A stretch of 64,000 nt of DNA, from positions 766,054 to 830,053 of the forward strand of contig CBDCCP010000002.1 in the NCBI GenBank assembly GCA_965214915.1, given 5' to 3'. This stretch comes from Bryobacterales bacterium (GTDB lineage Bacteria > Acidobacteriota > Terriglobia > Bryobacterales > UBA6623). The translations under genes were made by a program, and so were the position numbers. Below are positions 32,152 to 62,446 of the stretch, one piece after another; position 1 is the first letter of the stretch, and every line of letters begins with the position of its first letter. Below the pieces are notes generated by a model that worked only from the letters and a program-made list of their open reading frames with translations, made no database searches and was not told the DNA's origin.

Positions 32152-32169
32152 CGAGGGGTCTCCCTTGGG

Positions 32170-33216: not shown

Positions 33217-33228
33217 AAACTCCTCCTG

Positions 33229-34152: not shown

Positions 34153-34173
34153 AGTCGCTCCTTCATTCCCGTT

Positions 34174-35601: not shown

Positions 35602-35607
35602 CTTCGG

Positions 35608-41534: not shown

Positions 41535-41623
41535 AATTCTAGCTTGGGGTTCTTGGCGCCGACGCAACCGGCCGACCCGAAACCGGACCGGCCGTGTTGC
41601 GCCCCGAAGGATCGGATCGAGAA

Positions 41624-45701: not shown

Positions 45702-46685
45702 GTGCTAAAATGGAACTCTTCGAAATTCCATGCGCGCCGCCGCCTACTTTCCGCGTCTGACGCCCCGCGTTCAACACTGGAATTCCAAGTGAATAACGGC
45801 CGGGTAACATTTCTTTCGGCGCTCTTGACTCCCACTGCCGCCGGGGGGACGCTTGACCTGGACGCCTTGAGCCGGAATATCGAGTTCGTGATCGACGCCG
45901 GGGTCGACGGCGTCTGCGTGAACGGCGCCACCGGTGAGTATCCTCGTTTTACATCCTTGGAAAGGCGGGCGGTTGCCGAGAACGCGGGGGCGGTTCTGCA
46001 AGGCCGCGGTCGATTGGTCGTCGGCATCGGCGCCCCGACGCTCGACGAGTCGGTCGCCCTCGGCCGGCACGCTCTCGACCGCGGGGCGGACGCTCTGCTG
46101 CTGCCCCCGCCTCATTTTTTCCTGTACGAGCCGCAAGATGTCGCCTCTTTCTATTACGAGGCGGCGTCGCGCCTGGACGGTTCGATTCTGATCTACAACC
46201 TCCCGGCGTTTACGAGTCCCGTGACTCCCGAGTGCATTGCGCGGCTGGCCGCTGCTGCGCCCAACATTATCGGCGCGAAGGACAGCAGCGGAAGTCTTGA
46301 ATCTCTGGCCGCGCTCGAAAAGCAGCAGGCGGAGGTTCGCTGGATAGGCTATGACTCGAAAATCTCAGAGGCTTTGTCCTCAGGCGTAGCGAACGGCCTG
46401 ATTTCCGGCATTGCCGGCGTGTTCCCGGAAATCGTCGGCGCCCTGGTGAGCGCCCATCGAGCCGGCAATGACCCTGCGGCCGCCGGCGCGGTTCTGCTCG
46501 AGATCATCGAGCGCATCGAAACTCTCCCGGTTCCTTGGGGCTTGAAGCTGCTGGCGCAGCGCCGCGGCCTCGGAGAGGCGCATTTTGCCTTGCCGGTCTC
46601 GAACGGCCGGCGGCAAGAGTTGACCGTCTTGCAAGAATGGTTCGAGCGCTGGTCCGCCGGCCGGCGCCTGTTGCCGGTCGCATGA
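45702..46685 (+). CDS. Dihydrodipicolinate synthase / N-acetylneuraminate lyase family (class I aldolase)
   Basis: GVDGVCVNGATGEYPRFTSLER. Schiff-base lysine context IIGAKDSSG. The real start may be GTG 45789 (VNNGRVTFLSALLTP). Confidence 0.8.
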   Translation: MLKWNSSKFHARRRLLSASDAPRSTLEFQVNNGRVTFLSALLTPTAAGGTLDLDALSRNIEFVIDAGVDGVCVNGATGEYPRFTSLERRAVAENAGAVLQGRGRLVVGIGAPTLDESVALGRHALDRGADALLLPPPHFFLYEPQDVASFYYEAASRLDGSILIYNLPAFTSPVTPECIARLAAAAPNIIGAKDSSGSLESLAALEKQQAEVRWIGYDSKISEALSSGVANGLISGIAGVFPEIVGALVSAHRAGNDPAAAGAVLLEIIERIETLPVPWGLKLLAQRRGLGEAHFALPVSNGRRQELTVLQEWFERWSAGRRLLPVA

Positions 46686-46695
46686 GGAGGCGACG

Positions 46696-47760
46696 ATGAG
46701 CCCCACCACACGCCGTCAATTTTTGCGCAGCGGCGCCGCGCCGGCGGCCATGTCCGCCGCCGCTGCCTACAGCCCGCCCGCCCGCCCGGCCATCGACTGC
46801 CAAAGCCATCTTTTCGTCCCCGAGCTGGTCGAGATGATGGCCAAGAGGAAAGTCCCGCCGTACTCCTATAAGCAAGACGGCAACGTTTACGTCGTCACGG
46901 GGCCGCCGGGCGAATGGCGCCGCCGGCTGCGGGACAAGCACATGGACGCGGCGGCCAAACTGGCCGACATGGACGAAGCCGGGATCGAAAGGACGATGGT
47001 CAGCATCAACGATCCGGGGCCGGAAACATTCGGAACGGACGGCCCGGCCGCCGCGCGCATTTGCAACGACTGGATCGCCGATCTCGGCCAGCGCTACCCC
47101 GGCAGATTTTCCGGTCTCGCCGTGCTGCCGCTGCAAGACATGAACGCGGCGCTCAAGGAACTCGACCGCTGCGTCGGCAAGCTGGGCATGAAGGGCATCC
47201 TGCTCTATTCGAATCTCGCCGGAAAGTTTCCCGACGAAGAAGAGTTCCGGGAGTTGTTCGCGGAGGCGGAGCGCCGGGATATTCCGATTCTGCTGCATCC
47301 CGCGCACCCGGTGACGTTCGACGAAACCGAGGGTCACGGCATGACGGCGGGGCTGGGGTTGATGTTCGACACCACCATCGCGCTGGCCCGCATCATCCTG
47401 GCGGGAATCCTGGAGCGGCATCCGCGGCTGAAGCTCGTTTGCCCGCACGCGGGCGGCGCCTTGCCGTACCTGATCGGCCGCATCGATCACCAGACCCAGG
47501 TTCTCAAGCGCGGCGCCGAGCACATCGCCAAGCCTCCGAGCGAATACCTGCGGCAGGTCTATCTCGATGCGGTCTCGCCCATTCCCCTGGCGATCCGCTA
47601 CGGCATCGACTATGTCGGCGTTGAGCGCATGCTCTATTCGAGCGATCATCCCTGGGTAGATCCGAAAACCATCGCCGCGCACATCCAGAGCCTGGGGCTG
47701 CCGCCCGAGGACGAGGCGAAGATTTTCGGCGGGAACGCGGAGAGATTGTTCAACCTATGA
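46696..47760 (+). CDS. Amidohydrolase-2 (ACMSD-like metal-dependent hydrolase/decarboxylase) family protein with Tat signal
   Basis: TRRQFLRSGAAPAAMSAAAA leader, IDCQSHLF (metal-binding HxH-type start), ILLHPAHP, CPHAGGALPY, YSSDHPW. Confidence 0.8.
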   Translation: MSPTTRRQFLRSGAAPAAMSAAAAYSPPARPAIDCQSHLFVPELVEMMAKRKVPPYSYKQDGNVYVVTGPPGEWRRRLRDKHMDAAAKLADMDEAGIERTMVSINDPGPETFGTDGPAAARICNDWIADLGQRYPGRFSGLAVLPLQDMNAALKELDRCVGKLGMKGILLYSNLAGKFPDEEEFRELFAEAERRDIPILLHPAHPVTFDETEGHGMTAGLGLMFDTTIALARIILAGILERHPRLKLVCPHAGGALPYLIGRIDHQTQVLKRGAEHIAKPPSEYLRQVYLDAVSPIPLAIRYGIDYVGVERMLYSSDHPWVDPKTIAAHIQSLGLPPEDEAKIFGGNAERLFNL

Positions 47761-48683
47761 ATCCGGCGGCCCCGCCTCTGACGCGCCGCGACTGGCTGAG
47801 CATGGCCGCCGTGGCGTCATGCTCGTGCAGGCAGTCGGAACCGCCGCCTTTCCGCTTTCGGCTTGCCGTCTGCAACGAGACGTTTCAGCGCGCCGATTTT
47901 GCGGAAGGCTGCCGCCTGGCCCGCGAAACCGGCTATACGGGTCTGGAGATCGCGCCGTGGACGCTAAGCGGCGATCCCGCGTCCATCGCTCGGGCCGCCC
48001 GCGCGGACTGCCGCCGAGCCATGGCCGATGAAGGCCTGACCTGCGTCGGGCTGCACAGTCTGCTGACGGCGCCGCCGGGAGAGTTGCATATCACCACCCC
48101 CGACGACCGGGTGCGCAGCAGAAGTTGGGACTACTTCCGCAGATTGATCGACCTTTGCGCCGACCTGGGCGGCGACAAGCTGATGATCCTGGGTTCGGGC
48201 AAACAGCGCCGCACGGTCGGCGGCTCCAGCGTCGAAGATGCGCTGCGACGGCTCACGGACGGGTTGGCTGAAGCCGCGCCCCACGCGGAAGCGCAAGGCG
48301 TAACAATCTTGCCCGAAACGCTCGCGCCGCACCTCTGCGACGTGATGACGACGATGGACGAAACGGTGGAGATCGTTCGCCAAATCGACAGCCCGGCAGT
48401 GCAGACGATGTTCGACACCCACAACGCCGTTGCCGAAGAGTTGCCGCACGACCGCCTCATCAAGAAATACGGGCTGTATATTAAACATGTCCACGTCAAC
48501 GAAATGGACGGCAGCCGTCCCGGCGCGGGTGGCTACGACTTCGCGGCGCCGATGAAAACGTTGAAAGACATCTATTACCGGGGCTGGCTCTCGCTCGAGG
48601 TTTTTCGTTTCGAGCCGAGCGGCGAGGTTGTCGCCCGCGAGGCCGCGCAGTTCCTGCGTCGGGTCGAGGCCGGACTCGCCTAA
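47757..48683 (+). CDS. Sugar phosphate isomerase/epimerase (xylose-isomerase-like TIM barrel)
   Basis: ATGA overlap with the upstream gene. TRRDWLSMAAV leader. GYTGLEIAP, LMILGSG, ILPETL and HVHVNE are typical family strands. Confidence 0.8.
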   Translation: MNPAAPPLTRRDWLSMAAVASCSCRQSEPPPFRFRLAVCNETFQRADFAEGCRLARETGYTGLEIAPWTLSGDPASIARAARADCRRAMADEGLTCVGLHSLLTAPPGELHITTPDDRVRSRSWDYFRRLIDLCADLGGDKLMILGSGKQRRTVGGSSVEDALRRLTDGLAEAAPHAEAQGVTILPETLAPHLCDVMTTMDETVEIVRQIDSPAVQTMFDTHNAVAEELPHDRLIKKYGLYIKHVHVNEMDGSRPGAGGYDFAAPMKTLKDIYYRGWLSLEVFRFEPSGEVVAREAAQFLRRVEAGLA

Positions 48684-48699
48684 GCGCATGGAGGTTGCA

Positions 48700-49983
48700 A
48701 TGAATCGACGCTATTTTTTCGCCGGCGCGGCGGCTGCGGCGACGGCGGCCGCCCGCCGCTCGACGGCCGCGAGCGACAAGGTCAACCTGGCTTTCATCGG
48801 AGTAGGCGGGCGCGGGCGCGGCTTGGCCGCAAGCTTTGCGAAACTGCCCGATGTCAACGTCGCGCATCTCGTTGACGCCGACCAGGCTTCGCTCGAACGC
48901 GCCTTCGCCCGACTCGACCAGAACGGAATCGCGCGGCCGCCGACAAGCGGCGACATGCGCCGCGCTCTCGACCGCGCGGACATCGACGCCGTCGTGATCG
49001 CTACTCCCGATCATTGGCATACGCCGGCCGCGCTGCTCGCCTGCGAAGCCGGCAAAGACGTTTACGTGGAAAAACCCTGCTCCCACAACATCCGCGAGGG
49101 GCGTCTGCTGGTCAACGCCGCCCGCCACAACAAGCGCATCGTGCAGCACGGCACGCAGGCCCGCAACCGCCCTTCGACCGTGCGCGCCATCGATTATGTG
49201 AAATCGGGAAAGATCGGCAAAGTCCTGATGGCCAAGGCCTGGAATATCCAGTTGCGCGAGGACATCGGCCATAAGCCGGACGGCCCGGTTCCCGAAGGCG
49301 TGGACTACGACGCCTGGCTCGGCCCGGCGCCGTGGATTCCGTTCAACGAAAACCGCTTCCACTACAAATGGCACTGGCATTGGCATTTCGGCACCGGGGA
49401 TGCGGGAAACGACGGCGCGCACCAACTCGATATCGCCCGCTGGGCGCTGGGCGTGAGCTATCCGCAAACGATTTCGGGCATGGGCCGCAAGGTGTTCTTC
49501 GACGACGACCAGCAGACCCCCGACACGATGAACGTCACTTTCGACTACGGCGACAAGGCGATGATCTGGGAAATGCGCATCTGGACGCCCTACAAGATGG
49601 CAGGCGTCGATAACGGGGTCGCCGTGTACGGCGCGGAGGGCATGGTCCACATCGGCCGTTGGAACCGCCGCTGGGGTTTCAAGGTCTTCGACGCGCAGGG
49701 CGGGGAAGTCATGCACGACGCGGAGACCGAAGACGAGATGGCCGCTCACGGGCGGGACTTCATCGACGCGGTCAAATCCCGCAAGCTGCCCAACGCCGAC
49801 ATTGGCGTCGCGCATTTATCGGCGATGCACTGTCATTTGGCCAACATCGTCGCGCGGTCGAACCGCACCCTGCGCTTCGACCCCGAAAGCGAGACTGTGA
49901 TCGGCGACGCGGAGGCGAATCTCCATGTCAAGCGGCGCTACCGCAGGCACTGGGGAACTCCCAGGCATTTAGCCGGCGCGTGA
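48700..49983 (+). CDS. Gfo/Idh/MocA-family oxidoreductase with Tat signal
   Basis: GGAGG RBS 5 nt before ATG 48700. MNRRYFFAGAAAAATAAA leader. LAFIGVGGRGRGL Rossmann motif. YVEKP motif. Confidence 0.85.
   Translation: MNRRYFFAGAAAAATAAARRSTAASDKVNLAFIGVGGRGRGLAASFAKLPDVNVAHLVDADQASLERAFARLDQNGIARPPTSGDMRRALDRADIDAVVIATPDHWHTPAALLACEAGKDVYVEKPCSHNIREGRLLVNAARHNKRIVQHGTQARNRPSTVRAIDYVKSGKIGKVLMAKAWNIQLREDIGHKPDGPVPEGVDYDAWLGPAPWIPFNENRFHYKWHWHWHFGTGDAGNDGAHQLDIARWALGVSYPQTISGMGRKVFFDDDQQTPDTMNVTFDYGDKAMIWEMRIWTPYKMAGVDNGVAVYGAEGMVHIGRWNRRWGFKVFDAQGGEVMHDAETEDEMAAHGRDFIDAVKSRKLPNADIGVAHLSAMHCHLANIVARSNRTLRFDPESETVIGDAEANLHVKRRYRRHWGTPRHLAGA
49499..49977 (+). repeat. Direct repeat copy 1 (intact 3' end of the Gfo/Idh/MocA gene)
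   Basis: It aligns by eye, base for base, with 50558-51051 (offset 1059 nt at the left end). Roughly nine of ten positions are identical. Confidence 0.85.
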
Positions 49984-51237: not shown

Positions 51238-52690
51238 ATGAGAAAGGCAGCCCGTCGACTATATCGTATAAACCGACCCTTTCACAGGCAGCAGCGCGGC
51301 GGGAAGTACGTCCAGCTATTCTTCACTGTTTGCGCCGCGCTGTCGGCTTCGGTCGCGCTGGGGCAGACCGCCGTCCCGTGGACGATCGAGACAGTCGCCG
51401 GCGCCGGATTCAGCGGCTACGGCGGGGACGGTGGCCCGGCGGCGCAGGCGCGGTTGAATCGCCCCGTCGGCGTGGCGCTGGACGGAGCGGGCAACCTGTA
51501 CATCGCCGATGGTTTCAACCACCGCATCCGCAAGGTGGACGCAGCCGGCGTCATCTCCACCGTGGCGGGCGACGGGACGGCCAGCTACGGCGGGGACGGC
51601 GGCCCGGCGGCGCAGGCGCTGTTGAGTCGACCCGCCGACGTGGCGGTGGACGGAGCGGGCAACCTGTACATCGCCGATACATACAACCACCGCATCCGCA
51701 AGGTGGACGCGGCCGGCGTCATCTCCACCGTGGCGGGCGCCGGGAGGGAAGGCTACGGCGGGGACGGCGGCCCGGCGGCGCAGGCGTGGTTGAATCAACC
51801 CAGCGGCGTGGCGGTGGACGGAGCGGGCAACCTGTACATCGGCGATCAGCACAACCACCGCATCCGCCGCCTGCGGCCGACGCCCCGGATATCTGCGGGC
51901 GGCATCGTGCTCGCTACCGGCACTCCTGTCGTGAGCCGCATCTCCCCCAACGCCATCGTTTCCGTCTTCGGACAGGATTTCGCGCCGCCGGGGAGGCAGG
52001 AGTCGAGCGCTCTGGACGCCGCAGGCAGAGTTGCCGACAGACTGGCCGGCGTCTGCCTGGAGATCGGCGGCAGGCGCACCCTGTTCACCTACATCGACGG
52101 CAAGCGCGCCCCGCTGTTCTACGTCTCCCCCACGCAGATCAACGCTCAAGTCCCCCACGATCTGACGCCGGGGCGGACGCAAGCGGCGGTCATCGACGGC
52201 TGCGGCTCGGACGCCGAATATCGCGGCCCGGAGACGCCGGTTGAGATCGGCGCGGTCTCGCCGGCCTTCTTCAACTTCGTGGACAACGGCGACGGGCGCA
52301 ACCCGCTCGTAGCCATGCACGGCGGCGGCCCCCGCCCTGGCCGGCGCGCCGGGCCTGCTGCCCGGAGCGGAGTTCACGCCCGCCGAGCCGGGCGCGATCG
52401 TCACCCTGTTCGGAACCGGCTTCGGAGCCGTCGAGCCGCCATTGGAAACGGGTCAAATCCCGGGCGCCGCGGCCAACTTGGTCAACGCGGCCGCCTTTAC
52501 CGTAGGCGGCATCGCGGTTTCCCCTGAGGATGTCCTCTACGCCGGCGCGTCGCCCTGCTGCGCCGGGCTCTACCAATTCACGCTGCGCCTGCCTGCCGAT
52601 CTGCCCGACGGCGACGCGCCCGTCATCGCCACGGCGCAAGGCGTTTCGACCCCTGAGGGGCCGTACCTTACCGTCCGCCGCCGGCAATGA
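51238..52690 (+). pseudogene. Secreted NHL-repeat protein with TIGR03437-like (Solibacter-type) C-terminal domain, interrupted by a frameshift in a C5 run
   Basis: Three NHL blades (GPAAQA.LN.P.GVA.DGAGNLYIAD..NHRIRKV) are followed by an IPT-like C-terminal domain. Frame 1 turns to R/P nonsense after MHGGGP (52329-52333 = CCCCC). The next frame continues sensibly (ALAGAPGLLPGAEFTPAEPGAIVTLFGTGFGAVEPPLETGQIPG...AGLYQFTLRLPADLPDG...) to stop 52690. Confidence 0.75.
51412..51870 (+). repeat. About 2.7 tandem copies of a 168-bp (56-codon) unit encoding NHL blades
   Basis: The string GGCGGGGACGG(T/C)GGCCCGGCGGCGCAGGCG recurs at 51421, 51589 and 51757 (period 168). The flanking sequence is near-identical at the nucleotide level. 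Confidence 0.8.
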
Positions 52691-53932: not shown

Positions 53933-54382
53933 ATGCTACAGTGCAGTCCGAGGCATTGCCTCTCAGTCCGGATCGTGACCCGTTCGGTGAGCGCTTTAGT
54001 TTTGTTGGCGGCCGTTGCAGGCAGTCGAGAAACCGCCCTCCCGGCGAGCGCGGAGACTCCGCCAAGCCCTGTCGCATACTCCGCCGAATCCGTCCGCGAG
54101 GGCCGCAAGACGTATCTCCGACTCTGCCAATACTGCCACGGCCAGGATGGCCGCGCGCAGGCGAATCCCGACTTCGATGCGCCCAGCCTGCGCAGGCCGC
54201 AAGAGTGGCGGAACGGCGTGAGCGACGAGCGTCTCTTCCTGTCGATAAAGGACGGCGTCGGCCACGACATGCCCCCGTTTCGGACGCAGCTTAAAGACGA
54301 GCAGATTTGGCGAATCGTCCATTTTCTGAGAAGCATCGGCCCGGAGAAATACCGCGGTCCAGGCGGCGGCCGGCCTGAATAG
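53933..54382 (+). CDS. Monohaem class I c-type cytochrome (secreted)
   Basis: Hydrophobic leader (SALVLLAAVAG), CQYCH haem motif, and downstream Met ligand context (GHDMPPF). The start may be internal. Confidence 0.8.
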   Translation: MLQCSPRHCLSVRIVTRSVSALVLLAAVAGSRETALPASAETPPSPVAYSAESVREGRKTYLRLCQYCHGQDGRAQANPDFDAPSLRRPQEWRNGVSDERLFLSIKDGVGHDMPPFRTQLKDEQIWRIVHFLRSIGPEKYRGPGGGRPE

Positions 54383-54397
54383 TGGAGGGAAAGCAAC

Positions 54398-56323
54398 ATG
54401 GCGAGTGAAAAACAAGTGTCGCGGCGCAAGATTCTGGTAGGCGCGGCGGCGTCGGCCGCCGTTCCGACTGCGGCCGCGGCGGCAACGGAACGCGACCGCG
54501 GCATCCTGATTCCGCAAGAAGTGCCGGCGGCGTTGAGCGAAGAGCCGCGTCCGGCCGACTTCCCCATGACGGGAGCGCAGGTCTTCGCCAAGGCGTGCAA
54601 GGCGGAGGGTCTCGCGGCGCTGTTCTGCGCGCCCGGAAACTACACCGTCATCAATGCCATCGCCTCAGAGGGCATTCCCAGTTACGGCGGCAGGACCGAA
54701 GGCATGATGTGCTCCGCCGCCGACGGTTTCTCGCGCGTGACCGGCGAGGTCGCCGCCGCGTCGGGCACCGAAGGCCCCGGTTTCACCAACATGATCATGA
54801 GCGTCGCCGCGGCCAACGCGGCGCGCACGCCGCTGTTGTTGCTGGCGAGCAATATGACCGTGGGCCTGGACGACACGGAGCAGGCGATCCAGCGCGGGTA
54901 TCAGCAACCCACGACCGTCGGGCTGAGAAAGTACGGCAAGCGGCTCATCGACCCGCCCCGCGTCCATGAGTACGCGGCCTATGCTTTCCGCCAGTTGAAG
55001 ACAGGGGTGCCGCGGCCGGTCCATCTCGATTTTCCGGGCGAGGTCGCGCGGGCGGTGTTCGAGTCTCCCGAAGACCTGGCCTACTTCCACGACCGCGCCA
55101 AGTACCGCACCGAAGCGAAGCCCCATCCGGCGAAGAAAGACATCGAACGAGCCGCGCGCATGATCGCCGCAGCGGAGCGGCCCATTATCGTCGCCGGCGC
55201 GGGAGTTTTTTACAGCAAGGCCTGGGATGCGCTGCAGGCGGCGGCCGAAAAGGCCGATATCGCCGTTGTCGAATCCGGCCCCAGCCGCGGCCACTTCGGC
55301 GACGATCACCCGCTGTCGGCGAATACCGCGCCCGACGCGCTGCTGAGCGCCGACCTCGTCGTTCTCTTGGGGCAGTACGTGATGCCGACGATTGGGGAAT
55401 ACGCCTTCGACCCCGATGCCCGTTACATCCGCATCGACCCCGACCCGGCGGACATCGGCCGCAATCTGCCGATCGACCTGGGCATCGTAAGCTGCGAAAA
55501 AGCCGCGCTCGAAGCGTTGGCCGACACGCTCAAAAAGGCGCGGAGGCCCGCTTGGCGGGACGAGCTGGCCGCCGCCCGCAAGGCGTTTGCGGAGCAGAAC
55601 GAGGAATATTACAGGCTCGGCTTGCAGCACAGCAAGGCGGCGCAAGCGGTCCACCCGGCGGTGATCGCGCGCGAGCTTGGAGATTTTCTGTACAACGCCG
55701 AGCTCGACCCCAAGCAAACGACGGTGGTGTCGGGCGGCTACGGGATCGCGCGCTACACGCGGCGGTTCCTGCAGGCGCACCGTCCCGGACAAATCTGCAA
55801 CGGCGCCTATCAGTACGGCGCGATCGGGCCGGACGTGGGCTATACGGTCGGCGCCGGCGCGGCGGTCCAACAGGGAGTCGGTCCGCACAAGCCGTACAAA
55901 GGAGCGCCGGTCGTTGCCGTTACCGGCGACGCGGGCTTTGCCTACTCCGGCATGGAGCTCGAAACGCTGTCGAAGTACCGCATCCCCGCGGTGGTGATCG
56001 TCTACAACAACAACGCCTGGGGCGTTTGGCGCAGCGGCCAAACCGGCGGCAGAGCCAACACGGCGCGGGCGCAGCACATGTATCTCTTCCAGGAGAATCT
56101 GCGCTACGAGAAGATCGCCGAGGCGCTGGGCGGACGCGGCGAGTACGTCACCGCCGCCGCGGATTTCCGTCCGGCGCTGGAGAGAAGCTACCAAGCCGCG
56201 GCCGCGCGAGGCGTCTCCACCGTGATCAATTGCCAGGCGATCAAGGAATTCTGGAGCTCGCGGGACTATCCGCCGGGTTTGCTGCAGAAAGTCGAGCCGG
56301 GCTGCATGGCTTACTACCACTGA
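54398..56323 (+). CDS. Thiamine-diphosphate-dependent enzyme (acetolactate synthase / pyruvate oxidase superfamily) with twin-arginine signal
   Basis: [31 protein letters not shown] leader. N-terminal Pyr domain ([24 protein letters not shown]...[10 protein letters not shown]). ThDP-binding motif [33 protein letters not shown]. Confidence 0.85.
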
Positions 56324-56805
56324 TGATTGCCGCACAACGGACGGCCGATGACGTCGAGCGGTCGCTGCGCCGCTACGCCGACCGCGGCGTATTCCGTTCG
56401 TTCAGCGCGGCCGGCGCGCGCGGAGGCAAGCGAAAGTTTTCTTTCGAGTACGTGTCCGCGCGGCGCATTGAGCTGGTGTTCGATCCGCGGACGGGTTCGC
56501 TCACGCTCCCGCGCCTGTTGCCCAATGCCCCGGCCGATTCGCGGATTTACCGCGATCTGAAAGCGTTTGTCCGTTCGCGTACGCTGTCGGAGGTTCCCGA
56601 TCACCGCCGGATCGACCCCGCGCGCGCGACGGTGCAGTGCTCCAACCGCAAGGGGTACGTCACGCTCAAGGTGGTTCCGGCAGACGGAGACGCCGCCTAC
56701 GCCTGCCGCTCGGCGGTCAAGCTGATCGGCGAAGTCTTTCTGGGGTTCTTGAACGGCCCCTACGCGGAATACATGTTCGCCAACTTCGATCGGCCGGAAG
56801 AGTAG
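56323..56805 (+). CDS. Hypothetical 160-aa protein translationally coupled to the ThDP enzyme
   Basis: ATG 56323 overlaps stop TGA 56321-56323. The ORF is coherent and not low-complexity ([28 protein letters not shown]...GPYAEYMFANFDRPEE). I recognise no motif and see no signal peptide. Confidence 0.55.
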   Translation: MIAAQRTADDVERSLRRYADRGVFRSFSAAGARGGKRKFSFEYVSARRIELVFDPRTGSLTLPRLLPNAPADSRIYRDLKAFVRSRTLSEVPDHRRIDPARATVQCSNRKGYVTLKVVPADGDAAYACRSAVKLIGEVFLGFLNGPYAEYMFANFDRPEE

Positions 56806-56867: not shown

Positions 56868-58364
56868 CTAAACTTCGACGAAGAGTTTCGCCAAGCGCTC
56901 GACTTCGCCGGGTTTGGCGTCGGCGATGTTTTCGTCCTCCAGCGGGTCGTTTTCGCGGTCGTAAAGCTCGCGGCCGCGCCCGTCGAAATTTTCGACCAGC
57001 TTGTAGCGCCGGTCCTGGACGGAACGCCAGACGCCGGAGCGTATCTTCAGCGACGAGCGCGAGAACTCGCGGCGGTCTTCGCCCGCGTTTTCCAGGATCG
57101 GCCGCAGCGATTGGCCGTCCTGGTATTCGAGCGCGCCGGCTTCGCCGATGTCCATGAAGGTGGCGGTCAGGTCGATCAGGCTGACCATGGCGCCGCTCTC
57201 GTAACCCTGGCGGATTGCCGGGCCGGCCAGCAGCAGCGGCACGCCGGCCGACGCTTGGTAGGGGACGGATTTGCTCCAGCGGCCGTGGTCGCCCAACATC
57301 TCGCCGTGGTCGCTGGAGTATGCGATCACCGTGTTTTCGAGTTCTCCCCGCTCCTTGAGCTTTTCCACGAAGATGCCCAGCCAGCGGTCGATGTTCTCGA
57401 TCATCGCGGCGTAGTTTTGCCGGATTGCGACGTGCTGCTCGGGCGGAAACGGCCCGTTGTAGTCGTGGGGCTGCTCGAAGTTGTCGATGATTCTGTCGGG
57501 GCCGCGGTATCTTGCGGCCATGCTCGCGGTGATGTCCATCGGCGGATGCGGGCCGACGAAGTTGAGCGCCAGGTGCCACGGCTTGCCGTCGGGCGCCCTG
57601 TCCAGCAGCTTCAGCCCGTTGCGGGCGATCCAGTTGTCGCAGTAGGCATCGTCCGGCAGCGGGACCGGCTTGGTTTCTCCCCACCAGGTCTCTTCCTTGA
57701 GGAGACGGTCATAGTCCGGGAGGTCCGGGTTGTTGACGATCTGGTTCCACTTCTTTAGGCCCAGCCGCTTGATCTCGTCCGCCCAGAGCTTGCCGAGCGG
57801 GGGGGTGCGGGAATCGAGGTAAGCGTAATAGGGGTCTTTGGGGCCGACGGGATCGCGGTTGTACGCGCCGGCGCCGCCGCCCTTGCCGCCGTTGTCGATC
57901 ATGTCGGAGAAGCCCCACGCTTCCATGCTGCCGCGGCCGTCGAGCCCCCATTCGTAGTCGCCTTTGTGCAGGTCGAGCTTGCCGCAGCCCATGACGTGAT
58001 AGCCGCTGTTGCGCAGGGCCTTGTAGTAGCTGACCCGCTCGACGGGGTAGTTGTCGCTGTTGTTGCGCACGCCGCAGCGCTCGTAAACGCTGCCCGAGGC
58101 GAGGCACGCGCGGGACGGTCCGCAGACGGGCGAATCGACCACGGCGTTGGGGAAAGAAACGCCGCTGTTGCGCAGGGCGGTCAGGTTCGGCGTCGGAACC
58201 GGCGTCGCCGGGTTCCAGCCGACCCAGTCGGAGCGGTGCTGGTCGGGGAAGAAAAACAGGAAGTTCGGCCGCGCGGCCTTTCTCGGTCCCGGAATGGATT
58301 GGCATGCGCCTGAAAAAACGGCGGCGCCGGCGGCGGACAGGAATTCTCGTCTTGTGGCTTGCAT
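56868..58364 (-). CDS. Formylglycine-type sulfatase with Tat signal
   Basis: TRREFLSAAGAAVFSGA leader. PNFLFFFPDQ. Active-site SPVCGPSRACLASG. Confidence 0.9.
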   Translation of the reverse strand: MQATRREFLSAAGAAVFSGACQSIPGPRKAARPNFLFFFPDQHRSDWVGWNPATPVPTPNLTALRNSGVSFPNAVVDSPVCGPSRACLASGSVYERCGVRNNSDNYPVERVSYYKALRNSGYHVMGCGKLDLHKGDYEWGLDGRGSMEAWGFSDMIDNGGKGGGAGAYNRDPVGPKDPYYAYLDSRTPPLGKLWADEIKRLGLKKWNQIVNNPDLPDYDRLLKEETWWGETKPVPLPDDAYCDNWIARNGLKLLDRAPDGKPWHLALNFVGPHPPMDITASMAARYRGPDRIIDNFEQPHDYNGPFPPEQHVAIRQNYAAMIENIDRWLGIFVEKLKERGELENTVIAYSSDHGEMLGDHGRWSKSVPYQASAGVPLLLAGPAIRQGYESGAMVSLIDLTATFMDIGEAGALEYQDGQSLRPILENAGEDRREFSRSSLKIRSGVWRSVQDRRYKLVENFDGRGRELYDRENDPLEDENIADAKPGEVERLAKLFVEV

Positions 58365-58647
58365 CGTGCCGTCAGTGTAGCGCCGCGCGGGGGGCGCTTG
58401 CAGCAGCCGATATTCTAAGAAAGGGCGGAAATCCGGCGCGTCGCAAGGGCGGAACCGCGGGTAACCACGCTATGCTCGGATTCGCCTAGCCGATGGGTTA
58501 GTATGTCTTTGTCCCGACCCGGTCTTGTTGTCGATGCAAACGGTCGATGCAAACGAAGGAGGATGCAGGAGCCGCAACGCAGCGCGCGCGATGAGAGACG
58601 GTTCGGCGTCGTTGCATTACCGGCCGAGGGGTGGAAGGGCCATTGAC

Positions 58648-59901
58648 ATGGAGATGAATAGACGCCTTGCCTTGAAAGGGATCGGGGGCCTGCTGACGCT
58701 TCCCCTCTTGGAATCCGACGCCGCCGCCGCTCAGCCTCCGCCTACGCGGTTCTTGGTCGTGGGCAACCCGCTGGGGATGCATCCCGATCACTTCTTTCCA
58801 ACAGAATTCGGGAAGTCTTTCACGTTTCCCCAGACCCTTCGATCTCTCGAATGGCTTCGCGATCGACTCACGATCCTGTCTCACACGGATCATGGGATGA
58901 ACAACGGTCATGGCCGCGAGATATCGTTTCTGAACGGCGTTCTTCCCGAGAACGGTTCGGCCTACTCCGAGCGAAACGTCTCAGTAGATCAAGTGATGGT
59001 CCGCCGCACGCATGGGCGCGTACGCTTTCCGTCGGTCCATGCAGCTCTGGAAAACGGGATTCGGATGAGCTGGAATGCCAATGGCGTCGATCTGAAGCCG
59101 ATTACGGACCCGCATAGACTGTTCGACCACCTGTTTCTCAACCTGACCGCCGAGCAGCGAACGGTCCGCAAGCAGTTGATCGCGCGCAACGGCAGCATTC
59201 TGGACACGGTGGGCGAGCAGTTAGCCGGCTTGCAGCGGAGAGCCGGCAGACGGGATCGGGAGCGGTTGGATCAGTACGCGACTTCGATTCGCGAGTTGGA
59301 AGCGAGCTTGGCGGACCGCAGCGAGTGGGTTGACCGCGACAAGCCGCAGTTCGATATCTCGCGACATTTCTCCGGCTCCGAGACGACCATCGGCAACCGA
59401 TACGACGCGATCTTCGACATGGTTGCGTATGCATTCGAAACCGATCTCACGCGCGTCGCCACGGTGGCCTTCCCCAACGAACTCGGATATACCGACATCG
59501 ACGGCGTGACGCGCGGCTACCACGCATGCACCCATAACGGCAAGAAGGAAGAAGTGATTGCCGAGCTGGTTGCGATCGAGTCGTTCCAAATCGAGCAGTT
59601 GTCACGTTGCCTGCGGAAGCTGGACTCTGTTCGGGAACCCCAGGCAGACGGCACGCTGCTCGATCGCACGATCGTCTTGTTCGGCAGCGGAATGGGATAC
59701 GGCGGCACCCACTCGAACCGGAACCTTCCGATCCTGGTCGCCGGCGGAGGCTTCCGGCATTTGGGACACGTCGATACCCGCAGCGGGAGCGGCTCCAACA
59801 TGCCATTGTGCAACCTCTACGTCACGCTGCTGCAGCGCTTCGGCGTGGAGAGGGAGCGGTTCAACACGAGCACGGGCGCTTTCGAGTTACGTTATGGGTA
59901 G
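58648..59901 (+). CDS. DUF1552 domain protein
   Basis: MEMNRRLALKGIGGLLTLPLLES Tat-like leader. The C-terminal pattern LLDRTIVLFGSGMGYGGTHSNRNLPILVAGGG...NLYVTLLQRFGV is typical of DUF1552. Confidence 0.85.
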   Translation: MEMNRRLALKGIGGLLTLPLLESDAAAAQPPPTRFLVVGNPLGMHPDHFFPTEFGKSFTFPQTLRSLEWLRDRLTILSHTDHGMNNGHGREISFLNGVLPENGSAYSERNVSVDQVMVRRTHGRVRFPSVHAALENGIRMSWNANGVDLKPITDPHRLFDHLFLNLTAEQRTVRKQLIARNGSILDTVGEQLAGLQRRAGRRDRERLDQYATSIRELEASLADRSEWVDRDKPQFDISRHFSGSETTIGNRYDAIFDMVAYAFETDLTRVATVAFPNELGYTDIDGVTRGYHACTHNGKKEEVIAELVAIESFQIEQLSRCLRKLDSVREPQADGTLLDRTIVLFGSGMGYGGTHSNRNLPILVAGGGFRHLGHVDTRSGSGSNMPLCNLYVTLLQRFGVERERFNTSTGAFELRYG

Positions 59902-62446
59902 CTTGCGCCGCGCGGCGATGGCGCTGGCCGCGTTCGGCGCCATGCAATCGGCTTCCGGCGACGACCGCATCGCCGCGCCCGGCTTGGAATTGCTGAAGAC
60001 TCATTGTTCGTCCTGTCACGGCGGCGCGGAGCCGAAGGGCGGATTCCGGGTCCGTTCTCTGGCCGAAAACCAGGATTGGCACAACGCCGCTCTGTGGCGA
60101 AAGAGCTTGGAATACGTCCGAGCCGAGTTCATGCCCCCGGCGGAAGCGGGTCGGCTTGCGGCAACGGATCGCCGCCGCATCGTCGCTTTTCTCGAAGGTC
60201 GGCTTCGCGGCGGGGGAGAGCGAACCGGCGAGGCGAGCGGAGGCGCGCCGCGGCGGCTCAACAATCGCGAGCTCGCCAACAGTGTCCGCGACGTGCTGAT
60301 GATCGAAGACGTCGGGACGCATCGGCCGCTGGCCGATCTGCTTGGCGACACGCTGCACGACGGCTTCGACACGAACGCCGACGCGCTGGGGATGAGCCAG
60401 TTTCACCTGGAGCAGTACATCGAGGCGTTTCGCAAAGTCGTCGACGCTGCGATCCTTTCCGGCGAACGGCCCGAGACGCGCCGCTACGAAGTCACGGCCG
60501 GCGACATGCGCATGACGAGCCTGTCTCAGAGGAGGAGACAAGAGCGAGCGAATCGGACAGCGGAGAGCATAGACTTTCTCGATCCGAGATTGCGCGTGTA
60601 CTTCGCGAATTTCGAAAGCGCGCCGGCGACAGGGAGATATCGCATCAAGATCCGCGCCGCGGCCAAGGATCGCGGGGTGTACGACTCCGCCGAGACGGGC
60701 ATCTACGACGGTGACCCGATTCGCTTGAGCGTTCACTTGGGTGACCGTATCCGGGTTTTCGCCCTTGCCGACGAGACGCCGACCGAGATCGAGCTGGACG
60801 AATGGATCGCGGCGGGCACGCGGCTTGAACTGTCGTATCCGACGGACGGTTTGCGGCTGCGCGGCAACGGGAACTTCAAGTTTCAGTTTTCGATCGCCCA
60901 CGATCACATTCAGAAGACCGACCCGAAGCTGTATGCGGCGATCCTGAAAAGGAATCTACCCAAGGCTCCGGCGCGAACGGCGAAAAATCCGAGACACTGG
61001 AGCCACTGGACCGAGCACTGGCAAGGGCCGCGGCCGCGCTTGTTCAGCGCCGCGATCGAAGGTCCGCTGTATGCAAGCTGGCCGCCGAAGCGGCAGGCCG
61101 CTTTGCTGGGAGAGTCTCCCAAAGCGCAGAATGCCGCCTCCATCTTGCGCCCGATCGCGGAAAGGGCCTGGCGTCGCGAGTTGCGCGACGGCGATCTGGA
61201 CGCGATCGTTCGTTTCGTTGCGTCCAGGGCCGCGGAGGGAATCTCGGCGGAGAGGCATATCGAAGCGCTGAAGGAAGGCATCGTTGCGATTCTCGCTTCG
61301 CCTTCGTTCCTGCTGGTGAACTCGGGTGACGGCGCCCCCTCTGACCGATTCGCGTCGAAGCTCAGCTATTTCCTCGGCAGCACGATTCCCGATTCGCACA
61401 TCCGTGAAGCTGCTCGCAGTGGCGAGCTGGCGACGTTCGAGGCGGTGCGCGCCGAAGTCCTCCGCCGGTTCGAGCGCTCCGCAGCGGACGAGTTCGTGCG
61501 GGAGTTCCCGCATGCGTGGCTGGAGTTGGATCGCATCAACTTCATGGCGCCGGATCCGGATCGTTTTCCCCTGTACGCCCGCAAGCGGTTGAGCGAGGAC
61601 ATGGTTGACGAGGCGTTGCGGTTTTTTCGGCATGCGCTGGAAAACAACCTTCCCGTCCCCGAGTTGTTATCGGCCGACTACACATTTCTGAACGCGGATC
61701 TGGCCAAGGTCTACGGGGTCGACGACGCGCCGCAGGACTCGCAGTTGCGCAAATACACGTTTGCCGACGGACGGCGGGGCGGGCTGCTCGGCATGGGGGC
61801 TTTCCTGACCCTGACGGCGGACAGCCTTTCGACGTCGCCCATTCATAGAGCGGTTTACGTGATGGAGAAGTTCCTGGGGATTCGACCGGCGCCGCCTCCG
61901 GACGACGTCGAGATCGCCGAACCCGATGTCCGTCAGGCCAAGACGATCAAGGAAATCCTCGCCGCGCACACAGCCGACCCAACTTGCGCGTCCTGCCACC
62001 GCAGCATCGATCCGTACGGATACGCTTTCGAGAACTTCGACTCGACCGGCGCGTGGCGCGACGAATACACGATGCATATTGCCGCCAAGCCGTCGCGGGA
62101 AGCGCTGCTGGAGATCGAGCAGCAGGACCGGCAGCGAGCCGCACGGGGATTGGCGCCCGTGGAGAGACCCTGGGAGCGCGCTCCGATTCCGGTTGACGCC
62201 GCTTCGCGGTTTCCTGACGGCGCCCCGTATGACGGCATCGTCGGATACCGTCAGCGCCTCCTGGGCGACGAGTACCGAGACCGATTCGTCCGCTGCTTCA
62301 TCCAGAAGCTGCTGACCTACGCGAACGGCAGAGAATTCGAAGATTCGCCGGAAATCGAGAGCATCCTGGCGAGGTCCGCGGAAAACGACTACCGGATTCT
62401 CGACACGATCGCAGCCGTAATCGACAGTCCGTTGTTCCGCGAATAG
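59894..62446 (+). CDS. DUF1587/DUF1592/DUF1595/DUF1588/DUF1585-type multidomain protein with N-terminal CxxCH
   Basis: ATG 59894 overlaps the DUF1552 stop by 8 nt. Signal peptide. LLKTHCSSCHGG. C-terminal CASCHRSIDPYGYAFENFD (DUF1588) and FVRCFIQKLLTYANGR (DUF1585) signatures. Confidence 0.85.
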   Translation: MGSLRRAAMALAAFGAMQSASGDDRIAAPGLELLKTHCSSCHGGAEPKGGFRVRSLAENQDWHNAALWRKSLEYVRAEFMPPAEAGRLAATDRRRIVAFLEGRLRGGGERTGEASGGAPRRLNNRELANSVRDVLMIEDVGTHRPLADLLGDTLHDGFDTNADALGMSQFHLEQYIEAFRKVVDAAILSGERPETRRYEVTAGDMRMTSLSQRRRQERANRTAESIDFLDPRLRVYFANFESAPATGRYRIKIRAAAKDRGVYDSAETGIYDGDPIRLSVHLGDRIRVFALADETPTEIELDEWIAAGTRLELSYPTDGLRLRGNGNFKFQFSIAHDHIQKTDPKLYAAILKRNLPKAPARTAKNPRHWSHWTEHWQGPRPRLFSAAIEGPLYASWPPKRQAALLGESPKAQNAASILRPIAERAWRRELRDGDLDAIVRFVASRAAEGISAERHIEALKEGIVAILASPSFLLVNSGDGAPSDRFASKLSYFLGSTIPDSHIREAARSGELATFEAVRAEVLRRFERSAADEFVREFPHAWLELDRINFMAPDPDRFPLYARKRLSEDMVDEALRFFRHALENNLPVPELLSADYTFLNADLAKVYGVDDAPQDSQLRKYTFADGRRGGLLGMGAFLTLTADSLSTSPIHRAVYVMEKFLGIRPAPPPDDVEIAEPDVRQAKTIKEILAAHTADPTCASCHRSIDPYGYAFENFDSTGAWRDEYTMHIAAKPSREALLEIEQQDRQRAARGLAPVERPWERAPIPVDAASRFPDGAPYDGIVGYRQRLLGDEYRDRFVRCFIQKLLTYANGREFEDSPEIESILARSAENDYRILDTIAAVIDSPLFRE

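Follow-up and report, generated by a model that had tools for sequence, protein, structure and literature searches.

Oxidative chemistry with thiamine diphosphate (ThDP) occurs naturally in PoxB, pyruvate oxidase (POX) and pyruvate:ferredoxin oxidoreductase (PFOR). To our knowledge, oxidative ThDP enzymes need flavin adenine dinucleotide (FAD) or iron–sulfur clusters, and every characterised member of the superfamily of POX and acetolactate synthase (ALS) is cytoplasmic, organellar or located at the membrane's inner face. POX and PoxB are found in the cytoplasm or peripherally at this inner face, and pass electrons through an FAD relay to O2 or ubiquinone. Oxalyl-coenzyme A (CoA) decarboxylase (OXC) and 2-hydroxyacyl-CoA lyase (HACL) of the same fold are cytosolic or peroxisomal, CoA-dependent and non-redox. 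Outside the cytoplasm, the fructose, gluconate and sorbitol dehydrogenases of acetic acid bacteria combine a large catalytic subunit with a small protein and a c-type cytochrome, whose haem c takes up the substrate electrons outside the cytoplasm, and depend on twin-arginine translocation (Tat), while the periplasmic aldehyde oxidoreductase PaoABC is exported by Tat together with its cofactors. Here we describe a three-gene locus of about 2.9 kb from a Bryobacterales bacterium, which encodes a cytochrome c, a ThDP-dependent enzyme with a predicted Tat leader and a third open reading frame (ORF3). It was analysed within a stretch of 64,000 nt (assembly GCA_965214915.1, contig CBDCCP010000002.1, positions 766,054-830,053 of the forward strand), hereafter called the window.

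ORF translation places the three genes on the + strand at 53933-56805 of the window, in the order cytochrome c, ThDP enzyme and ORF3. We propose, with confidence evenly balanced for and against, that the trio builds a periplasmic and probably flavin-free ThDP oxidoreductase that would reduce its dedicated cytochrome c. The features of the locus are as follows (window coordinates).

53933..54382, + strand: monohaem class I cytochrome c, 149 amino acids (aa) as called; the true start may lie further in, at GTG 53975 or GTG 53987
53933..54052, + strand: signal peptide of the general secretory (Sec) type of the cytochrome, read from the translation, with a predicted cleavage site
54125..54139, + strand: haem-binding motif CQYCH, residues 65-69 of the cytochrome in translation, kept in the seed cytochromes
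54384..54388, + strand: Shine-Dalgarno sequence GGAGG, 9 nt 5' of the ATG of the ThDP enzyme, read directly
54398..56323, + strand: ThDP-dependent enzyme, 641 aa, with PYR-R-PP architecture (Pfam TPP_enzyme_N/M/C)
54398..54484, + strand: predicted twin-arginine signal peptide of the ThDP enzyme, with S8-R9-R10-K-I-L, 18-19 uncharged residues and AAA/T
54485..54565, + strand: conserved, mostly acidic linker between leader and catalytic domain, from the family alignment
55925..56014, + strand: ThDP/Mg2+ motif GDAG...YNNN, residues 510-539, followed by the invariant W541-G542, from the alignment
56234..56320, + strand: conserved C-terminal tail QAIKEFW... of the ThDP enzyme, from the family alignment
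56323..56805, + strand: ORF3, a basic protein of 160 aa with no signal peptide, whose start overlaps the stop of the ThDP gene

The spacer between the cytochrome gene and the ThDP gene is 15 nt long and holds the GGAGG, and the stop of the ThDP gene (TGA, 56321-56323) shares one base with the start of ORF3 (ATG, 56323-56325) in the string CAC TGATG ATT. Scans for promoters and terminators around the operon gave counts no higher than those of shuffled sequence. The layout agrees with an earlier sequence-only reading of this DNA, which had described three tightly packed genes on one strand, a 15-nt gap before a 641-aa ThDP enzyme, and a stop codon overlapping the ATG of a 160-aa protein. The same reading had written the ThDP motif as GDAG-x24-NNN; the motif is present, but its spacing counts as GDAG-x23-NNN, which equals GDA-x24-NN over residues 510-538.

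The trio is conserved as a unit. Relatives at 92%, 79%, 79%, 73% and 72% identity each carry a cytochrome c, the ThDP enzyme and an ORF of 160-169 aa, with flanks that differ each time. A GTDB scan with one genome per species yielded 80 loci at 59-95% identity. In a census of 84 non-redundant loci, made with hidden Markov models (HMMs) built from the module's own cytochrome and ORF3, a same-strand cytochrome is found in 73, ORF3 in 75 and the complete trio in 70, so the arrangement is not a product of chance. The cytochrome gene lies directly 5' of the ThDP gene in 37 loci and directly 3' of ORF3 in 36, and this linkage, surviving rearrangement into two gene orders, is strong evidence of functional coupling. 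Truncation by a contig end accounts for the missing cytochrome in six loci and for the missing ORF3 in five. ORF3 is retained even by the most divergent ThDP members; the one at 56% identity keeps the cytochrome as well, and the one at 43% lies on a 2.7-kb contig that is too short to show whether a cytochrome follows. The sequence-only reading had named a lack of conservation of the cytochrome neighbour as fatal to its proposal and co-occurrence of the three genes across genomes as a check; both the neighbour and the co-occurrence are borne out by these counts.

The module spans at least five phyla (Acidobacteriota, Planctomycetota, Gemmatimonadota, Pseudomonadota and Hydrogenedentota). The hosts in the GTDB scan belong to Bryobacterales, Terriglobia, Thermoanaerobaculia/'Ca. 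Multivorans', Vicinamibacteria, Blastocatellia, Holophagales, Pirellulaceae, Planctomycetia, Gemmatimonadota, Hydrogenedentota and several Pseudomonadota, among them the isolate Methylobacterium sp. J-030 and a Kordiimonas metagenome-assembled genome (MAG). ORF3 is not found within the flanks of the Kordiimonas locus (L065). The 56%-identity module (L087:5541-9659; cytochrome c, ThDP enzyme, ORF3) stands between ubiB and a PRA-PH (hisE-like) gene followed by tatA/B, on a contig with ubiquinone-biosynthesis genes, a ubiE-like methyltransferase and UbiB/ABC1; we take this ubi-tat neighbourhood to be one that is conserved in Pseudomonadota. Five loci labelled Clostridia, Heliobacteriaceae or Heliomicrobium (L037, L038, L041, L060 and L073) have the order ThDP enzyme, ORF3, cytochrome c seen in Blastocatellia loci. 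L073 also has the gene for an F420-type luciferase-like oxidoreductase (LLM) inserted, and L041 and L073 have a haem c protein with a copper-monooxygenase-like domain, described below, as a neighbour. A periplasmic module of Tat substrate and cytochrome c seems unlikely in Firmicutes, and these five MAG bins may therefore be misclassified.

The leader of the ThDP enzyme contains S8-R9-R10-K-I-L, followed by an Ala-rich h-region of 18-19 uncharged residues and AAA/T. The leader thus combines the twin-arginine (RR) motif with a weakly hydrophobic h-region, a c-region of the A-x-A type and a true N-terminus, as expected of a Tat signal. A GGAGG lies 9 nt before the ATG and supports a translation start that takes in this leader. 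An RR-motif scan finds (V)SRRxF with an Ala/Gly-rich h-region in 117 of the 120 nearest homologues (71-92% identity; Bryobacterales or Acidobacteriia where named). Of the three that do not score, P0093 and P0103 come from gene calls cut short at the N-terminus, and P0114 does have SRRSF, outside the segment covered by the scan. The RR motif is likewise present in 84 of 85 loci, and a stop-to-stop scan of the exception, L024, found none. Across the family the h-region consists of 11-22 uncharged, Ala/Gly-rich residues.

An exhaustive HMMER search over 1.84 billion cluster representatives places a sharp edge around the family: scores of 801-510 bits for full-length representatives at 60%, 56% and 43% identity are followed by a drop to 227 bits for the next matches. 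All of these full-length representatives carry an N-terminal extension of ~55 residues, which is missing from relatives at 35% identity or less, ordinary 550-aa ThDP enzymes that begin at the PYR domain. The 43%-identity member, P0140, was considered as a member without the RR motif, and this was ruled out: there appears to be a one-base frameshift within its leader on the 2.7-kb metagenome contig (L086:1-330), where MEKKNGISRRDFF in one frame goes on as LKKAAVGAGVAAAV in another, so that RR motif and h-region fall into different frames. This frameshift is an assembly error or marks a decaying gene. Behind the leader, the linker has the consensus I-x-I-P-x-E-V-P-x-S-L-x-E-x-P-x-P-A-x-F-P-M, which is absent from all leaderless relatives; its net charge lies between -7 and +2, with negative values for 28 of 33 members analysed.

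Judged by this conservation, the N-terminal extension is a genuine twin-arginine leader and not a spurious one, from which export of the ThDP enzyme by Tat is predicted. The canonical leader noted in the sequence-only reading therefore holds, and the concern raised there, that homologues might start at an internal Met, finds no echo in close homologues or in members down to 43% identity. It could still be argued that the extension is not a cleaved Tat signal, and that the enzyme is cytoplasmic or tethered to the membrane by the leader, with an indirect association to the cytochrome; the absence of a signal peptide from ORF3 and the cytoplasmic type of some neighbours (F420-dependent LLM, GNAT, enoyl-CoA hydratase) would agree with this. 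However, nothing is missing from the S-R-R-x-F consensus of the leader, its h-region of 11-22 residues is weakly hydrophobic, positions -3/-1 hold small residues, and the leader is kept across phyla while its sequence drifts, as is typical of signal peptides. Moreover, the same kind of leader is found on other clear periplasmic-type proteins in the window, and the cytochrome c partner must itself be periplasmic to receive haem. We regard a non-exported enzyme as highly improbable.

Other leaders of the RRxF(L) type in the window belong to three GFO/IDH/MocA oxidoreductases, a xylose-isomerase-like TIM barrel, and DUF1501, Amidohydro_2 and sulfatase proteins; the leader of the sulfatase, TRREFLSAAGAAVFSGAC, possibly marks a Tat lipoprotein. 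RR-leader genes are found at 31021-35607 (- strand), 46624-47757 (+), 48565-49980 (+) and 56868-58364 (-), and the periplasmic metabolism of the organism seems, in its Tat-dependent part, to be unusually rich. The sequence-only reading had fitted the ThDP enzyme into a set of Tat-exported sugar oxidoreductases in the window. The three GFO/IDH/MocA genes with RR leaders do exist, but the module occurs in many unrelated neighbourhoods, and the link is weak.

The cytochrome was proposed to be a secreted monohaem cytochrome c with the motif CQYCH, and its translation agrees, with the motif at residues 65-69, a Sec-type N-terminus and Pfam matches to Cytochrome_CBB3 (PF13442, 1.7e-14) and Cytochrom_C (PF00034, 6.5e-9), both above cut-off. 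The signal peptide, the single CxxCH, the distal Met and the c-type domain are those of a class I c-type cytochrome, and the sixth haem ligand is likely the Met of HDMPPF. The N-terminus has a positively charged n-region, the h-region SVSALVLLAAVAG and an ASA/E cleavage motif. Since homologues are 126-176 aa long, the true start may be one of the internal GTG codons; a predicted Sec-type signal peptide remains whichever start is used, and hydrophobic N-termini are also present in the module cytochromes of L001, L002, L004 and L005. Sequence matches among Protein Data Bank (PDB) entries are the CcoP haem domain and c552-type cytochromes, and there is weak similarity to cytochrome cL and the c550 PedF. 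The HMM of the module cytochrome scores 75-243 bits in 73 loci versus 38.5 bits on the other cytochrome c-like ORF of the window, which marks the module cytochrome as a separate orthologue group. In L065 (Kordiimonas) and L070 (Hydrogenedentota), the cytochrome adjoining the ThDP gene contains two CxxCH motifs, not one.

The ThDP enzyme matches TPP_enzyme_N (1.8e-20), TPP_enzyme_M (7.6e-27) and TPP_enzyme_C (6.4e-22) in order and above gathering scores, but it reaches only 203 bits with the best NCBIfam model, versus a cut-off of 587. The models for oxalyl-CoA decarboxylase/lyase are also missed (NF006721, 178 vs 557 bits; TIGR03254, 169 vs 739; NF058623, 151 vs 600). Compared with solved structures, the family profile matches BbmA (3e-57), 2-hydroxyacyl-CoA lyase/synthase (6e-54) and OXC (3e-52), then benzaldehyde lyase (BAL) and formolase (about 1e-46) and glyoxylate carboligase (6e-42), and far lower pyruvate oxidase, acetolactate synthases and PoxB (1e-25 to 1e-29). 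The AlphaFold model has a predicted local distance difference test score (pLDDT) of 78.9 and has its poor regions at the leader, at loops 153-178 and 540-566 and at the tail. It superposes best on HACL/OXC, with a target-normalised template modelling score (TM) of 0.76-0.83 at 22-26% identity. Orthology to a known enzyme was considered and rejected, as NCBIfam, PDB sequence and fold searches gave distant relatives alone; the sequence-only reading had named clear orthology to a known cytoplasmic enzyme as fatal to its proposal, and NCBIfam scores far below cut-offs and PDB identities of 22-26% speak against it. By these measures the enzyme is a distinct Tat-leader clade of the POX/ALS-type three-domain superfamily, outside every curated family.

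The functional residues reported for the HACL/synthase ApbHACL/S (F116-Q117, R156, R276, R260 and R400; PMC11271303) were mapped onto 34 family members by two independent alignments, with HMMER and MAFFT. E101 aligns with the catalytic Glu of ApbHACL/S and is Glu in 33 of the 34 members and Asp in one. The GDA-x24-NN motif is formed by G510-D511-A512, 24 residues and N537-N538, with D511, N538 and N539 invariant, and the intermediate-contacting F116-Q117 corresponds to I164-Q165, kept in 33/34. The nucleotide sites are different: the ADP-binding R156 is replaced by V204 (Val or Ile in all 34), and the ADP-binding R276 has no Arg equivalent, falling on a gap with MAFFT and on Y327 with HMMER. 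The CoA-binding R260 is deleted in all 34, whereas the CoA-binding R400 is kept as R455 in 33, within R452-x-x-R455-R456, and its retention in this basic cluster suggests an anionic substrate. The 29-residue C-terminal tail has near-invariant E633, P634, G635, C636, M637, Y639 and H641, and low model confidence. The C-terminal region of HACL/S covers the active site (PMC11271303), and the tail would be, by its position, the equivalent of the active-site-covering segment of HACL/OXC. As far as the alignments tell, the enzyme keeps a lyase/decarboxylase catalytic core with a basic patch at the substrate entrance and has lost the CoA and ADP sites. By these residues it is not a CoA enzyme, and its R domain probably holds no nucleotide; CoA is not expected in the periplasm.

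The R-domain ADP site of OXC/HACL is, we assume, the site occupied by the ADP part of FAD in flavin-dependent members, and its degradation argues against a flavin without settling the matter. The sequence-only reading had asked whether the FAD-type middle domain is retained: the fold is, while the nucleotide-binding arginines of the closest relatives are missing. The enzyme might nonetheless be a flavoenzyme similar to PoxB or pyruvate oxidase, with FAD in the middle domain and electrons passing from ThDP through FAD to the cytochrome c. All known oxidative members of the three-domain fold (POX, PoxB) use FAD, the middle domain is retained (TPP_enzyme_M, 7.6e-27), and the FAD-binding glyoxylate carboligase is only moderately more distant than HACL (147 vs 187-197 bits). 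On the other hand, POX, PoxB and acetohydroxyacid synthase (AHAS) match at only 1e-25 to 1e-29 versus 1e-52 to 1e-57 for flavin-free relatives, neither of the two arginines with which HACL/S holds the nucleotide diphosphate is kept (V204 in one place, no Arg where R276 would be), and in the G-x-G turn that follows strand 1 of the R domain most members have Ser for the first Gly. We consider a flavin relay improbable.

A different question is whether the enzyme is redox-active at all. It could be a periplasmic non-redox ThDP lyase, carboligase or decarboxylase, which might cleave or condense aldehydes or acyloins downstream of periplasmic dehydrogenases or decarboxylate oxo acids or oxalate-like acids, with the cytochrome serving another enzyme of the pathway, for example a PQQ (pyrroloquinoline quinone) dehydrogenase or a haem c-fused copper-monooxygenase-like protein. 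The closest relatives in sequence and fold (OXC, HACL, BAL, formolase and BbmA) are all non-redox, and the weak similarity of the cytochrome to cytochrome cL and PedF c550 points the same way. A search with four queries located several kinds of PQQ dehydrogenase flanking the module in 19 loci from three phyla, one of them a quinohaemoprotein of the methanol/ethanol family. Proteins with a haem c motif fused to a weak copper-monooxygenase domain, similar to peptidylglycine alpha-hydroxylating monooxygenase (PHM), are found in 15 loci, often in tandem and also in Planctomycetota. Yet the cytochrome accompanies the ThDP gene in 73/84 loci, adjacent and in two orders, versus a dehydrogenase in at most 19 heterogeneous loci; in at least two cases (L004; L088/L089) the neighbouring PQQ enzyme has a cytochrome domain of its own, and most loci have no such neighbour. 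A non-redox enzyme beside a cytochrome that serves another enzyme is, in our view, rather unlikely.

The haem c-PHM-like proteins are secreted, about 440-480 aa long and have an N-terminal CQACH; Cu2_monoox_C scores 25.5 bits in one copy, against a cut-off of 23. Copies are found at L043:7050-8378, L043:8383-9834 and L034:3939-5330, and the window has a homologue at 39648-41981 (- strand; E 3.7e-75), 12 kb away, with C-terminal TPR repeats.

ORF3 was described beforehand as having no recognisable motif, and indeed it has no Pfam, NCBIfam or PDB-sequence match; Pfam and NCBIfam searches with 19 homologues at E <= 1 returned scattered single noise matches alone. None of about 100 homologues has a signal peptide, and the pI is at least 9 in 16 of 19, so the basic ORF3 is complementary to the acidic linker behind the Tat leader. 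The AlphaFold2 model (pLDDT 90.8, predicted TM 0.85) is confident and runs from a long helix through four strands, one helix and two strands to a final pair of helices. Its best PDB fold matches are the class I chaperones ShcF, Spa15, ExsC and InvB of type III secretion systems (T3SS), and P. aeruginosa BacA, although all of them score weakly (E >= 0.02, TM 0.3-0.56, with a probability of at most 0.97). BacA has the T3SS-chaperone/YbjN fold (PMC10948618). Among 22 diverse members G22, F24, P92, H94, R96 and L143 are invariant, and L15, Y18, A19, R21, L66, R95, D98 and Y150 are kept in at least 90%, giving the core motifs Y-A-x-R-G-x-F and P-x-H-R-R-x-D. A profile search recovers 233 clusters, of which the best 120 are all 147-199 aa and, where named, all hypothetical; three homologues were traced back, and each lies between a ThDP gene encoding 651-667 aa and a cytochrome c.

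Three assignments of ORF3 were rejected. An ACT-type AHAS small subunit has a stray ACT_5 match (E = 0.07) in one of 19 homologues as its sole trace, and the topology of ORF3 starts with a long helix; chaperones of the TorD/DmsD/NarJ or NapD type give no family match in the 19 homologues; and a secreted protein is at odds with the lack of a signal peptide in about 100 homologues. ORF3 is a candidate for one of two roles: a factor that stays in the cytoplasm and binds the N-terminal region up to cofactor loading, or a small subunit exported piggy-back. The former would resemble redox-enzyme maturation proteins (REMPs) and the T3SS effector layout of signal plus chaperone-binding domain. The latter, a structural or regulatory subunit that would leave with the ThDP enzyme, may bridge it to the cytochrome and would be no chaperone, falls somewhat short of even odds in our estimation. 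It is favoured by translational coupling to the ThDP gene (TGATG), by strict co-inheritance with the enzyme, and by the near-invariant P-x-H-R-R-x-D loop, which resembles a specific binding site more than a general peptide groove; AHAS-type large enzymes have small subunits encoded directly downstream, and partners of some Tat substrates are exported piggy-back. Against it, there is no ACT domain or AHAS small-subunit match, the topology differs, and the best fold matches are secretion chaperones and regulators.

The sequence-only reading had suggested a periplasmic enzyme that decarboxylates or oxidises a 2-oxo acid or a sugar-derived ketone and hands electrons to the adjacent cytochrome c; this chemistry stays hypothetical. 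Taken as a periplasmic oxidoreductase, the module would work as follows. The ThDP enzyme would fold, bind ThDP-Mg2+ and dimerise in the cytoplasm, where ORF3 would hold the leader and acidic linker until the cofactor is loaded, or else leave as a small subunit with the enzyme. The Tat pathway would then export the folded enzyme via its twin-arginine leader. Tat exports folded proteins, and because ThDP sites lie between two subunits and the periplasm has no ThDP supply, the enzyme must be exported folded. The cytochrome c would be exported separately by Sec and would receive its haem in the periplasm. There ThDP would be joined by the enzyme to a substrate carbonyl, that of an anionic 2-oxo acid or of an aldehyde, and the resulting carbanion/enamine would be oxidised by the dedicated monohaem cytochrome c in two one-electron steps, most likely without a flavin. 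Hydrolysis of the acyl-ThDP would release a carboxylic acid, plus CO2 if the substrate is an oxo acid, and the reduced cytochrome would feed the terminal oxidase of an aerobic chain. The ThDP carbanion/enamine is a strong reductant, which one-electron acceptors such as ferricyanide readily oxidise in standard assays of pyruvate dehydrogenase E1 and transketolase, and outside the cytoplasm the sole conserved partner of the enzyme would be the cytochrome, a one-electron carrier. The sequences themselves show the gene anatomy, the conserved leader, the linkage of the trio in two orders, the distinctness of the family and the loss of ADP and CoA contacts, while within this scheme we infer export, the electron transfer to the cytochrome, the absence of flavin, the substrate class and the role of ORF3.

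Several observations weigh against this proposal. The nearest characterised relatives, OXC, HACL, BAL and BbmA, are non-redox lyases or decarboxylases, and known oxidative members of the fold use FAD. PQQ dehydrogenases also use c-type cytochromes, and those near the module in 19 loci could be served by its cytochrome. Five loci with enough flank lack the cytochrome, including that of the sole cultured host, Methylobacterium sp. J-030, and four with enough flank lack ORF3. Around the active site the AlphaFold2 model is of poor quality, at loops 153-178 and 540-566, as it is at the tail. For ORF3, the resemblance in fold is weak (E >= 0.02, TM no higher than about 0.56), and T3SS chaperones are typically acidic, whereas ORF3 is basic.

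The surroundings of the trio vary, and no universal neighbour was found in a census of 84-89 loci. Recurrent, lineage-restricted neighbours are penicillin amidase (14 loci), an FGE-sulfatase-like protein (12), Zn-dependent alcohol dehydrogenase (Zn-ADH, 11), GNAT (10), the F420-type LLM (9), glyoxalase/dioxygenase (9) and RidA (8); rarer ones are epoxide hydrolase (6), amidohydrolase (6), GFO/IDH/MocA (4) and tannase (3). Tannase looked promising as a context clue in two loci and failed to hold up in the census. A block of Zn-ADH, RidA, FGE-sulfatase-like protein, ThDP enzyme, ORF3, cytochrome c and GNAT is typical of Vicinamibacteria-like loci (L088-L093; L051, L053, L057, L058, L062, L067, L072, L076 and L079). 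The FGE-sulfatase-like protein of this block resembles PvdO and the C-terminal domain of EgtB, and in some of these loci a DegT-type aminotransferase and a PQQ dehydrogenase follow the block. In Blastocatellia-type loci, the LLM gene sits between the ThDP gene and ORF3. The inserted protein scores 269 bits with TIGR03619 (cut-off 167) and occurs at L040:5945-8237, at L045:5887-6762 and in seven other loci, mostly labelled Blastocatellia. Some of these loci also carry an inserted GNAT acetyltransferase and a nucleotidyltransferase, which places cytoplasmic-type enzymes inside a periplasmic module. Upstream of the trio, the window and its closest relatives have IclR, DHDPS-like, GFO/IDH/MocA and enoyl-CoA hydratase genes. 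The picture that emerges is of an autonomous module that would be plugged into differing peripheral oxidation contexts, and the context names no substrate.

Further genes of the window lie on both sides of the trio. A secreted protein encoded at 51238-52527 (+ strand) has three NHL/teneurin-type beta-propeller repeats with near-identical units GAGNLYIAD..NHRIRKVDAAGVISTVAG; downstream of this gene long ORFs overlap in several frames, and its 3' end is uncertain. A DUF1552 (HXXSHH) protein at 58645-59901 (+ strand) is followed by a 962-aa protein at 59558-62446 (+ strand) with a cytochrome c-like motif and PSD/PSCyt domains (DUF1585, 1587, 1588, 1592, 1595). We take this gene pair, whose function is unassigned, to be typical of Planctomycetota and Acidobacteriota. 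The DUF1501 gene at 34177-35607 belongs to the same theme.

A wider reading, which we offer only tentatively and hold to be doubtful, is that the trio represents an unrecognised class of periplasmic respiratory dehydrogenase: a flavin-free, Tat-exported ThDP enzyme with direct ThDP-to-haem transfer, which would allow energy to be gained from extracellular 2-oxo acids, oxalate-like acids or aldehydes without import and would be matured by a factor of secretion-chaperone fold recognising the acidic segment. We know of no ThDP–haem redox pair of such a kind. If this is true, ThDP would join PQQ, FAD, molybdenum, haem and copper as a cofactor of periplasmic oxidation, and a direct electron path from ThDP to haem would be suggested. 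The host phyla Acidobacteriota, Planctomycetota and Gemmatimonadota are abundant and poorly understood bacteria of soil, sponges and groundwater, and the trio recurs in soil and marine bacteria; the module could explain part of the oxidation of extracellular small organic acids or aldehydes by these hosts. ORF3 is a clean, compact, unannotated family found only with this ThDP enzyme, and may be a new Tat assembly factor. The full-text literature searched, with subscription journals mostly outside it, describes neither a ThDP enzyme that is periplasmic or exported by Tat nor one coupled to cytochrome c, an absence that supports novelty without proving it. The compartment and the redox partner are unexpected for a ThDP cofactor, and the module is well-defined and widespread, with ORF3 as a new protein family.

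Compared with known systems, the ThDP enzyme shares with OXC/HACL (PDB 2q27, 2c31, 8vza, 7pt1, 6xn8) the three-domain fold, the catalytic Glu, the R-domain DDHPLS motif, the Gln at the intermediate-contacting position, a long helix between the R and PP domains, and a C-terminal segment placed so as to cover the active site. It differs from them in its identity of 22-26%, in scores below NCBIfam cut-offs, in the loss of both ADP arginines and one CoA arginine, in its 56-residue Tat leader plus linker, and in its cytochrome c and ORF3 partners. POX and PoxB belong to the same superfamily and are distant in sequence; in these enzymes the ThDP carbanion/enamine is oxidised, the acyl-ThDP is hydrolysed or phosphorolysed, and electrons enter the respiratory chain. 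In the present enzyme, by contrast, electrons would go to a soluble haem protein of the periplasm, and the site for a flavin looks degraded. The three-gene layout is similar to that of the flavoprotein-cytochrome c dehydrogenases of acetic acid bacteria. However, these complexes have an FAD/GMC-type large subunit, the Tat signal on the small subunit and a membrane-bound trihaem cytochrome, while in our module the ThDP large subunit itself bears the leader, the cytochrome is soluble and monohaem, and ORF3 is unrelated and leaderless.

ORF3 resembles TorD, DmsD and NapD in being a small signal-less protein, adjacent and translationally coupled to a cofactor-containing Tat substrate, and its predicted topology of helices on a six-stranded sheet is similar to SycE/CesT-type chaperones. 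It departs from both REMPs and T3SS chaperones in having no family match, weak fold scores, a basic character and a near-invariant H-R-R loop. As in PQQ alcohol dehydrogenases with cytochrome c550 or cL, carbonyl or alcohol oxidation would take place in the periplasm with electrons passing to a soluble cytochrome c or the chain; the cofactor is ThDP, unlike the PQQ of those enzymes or the molybdenum, FAD and iron–sulfur centres of PaoABC. By analogy, the module would work like PoxB in its chemistry and like the PQQ-dehydrogenase/c550 systems or the flavoprotein-cytochrome complexes in its layout, while being a member of none of them.

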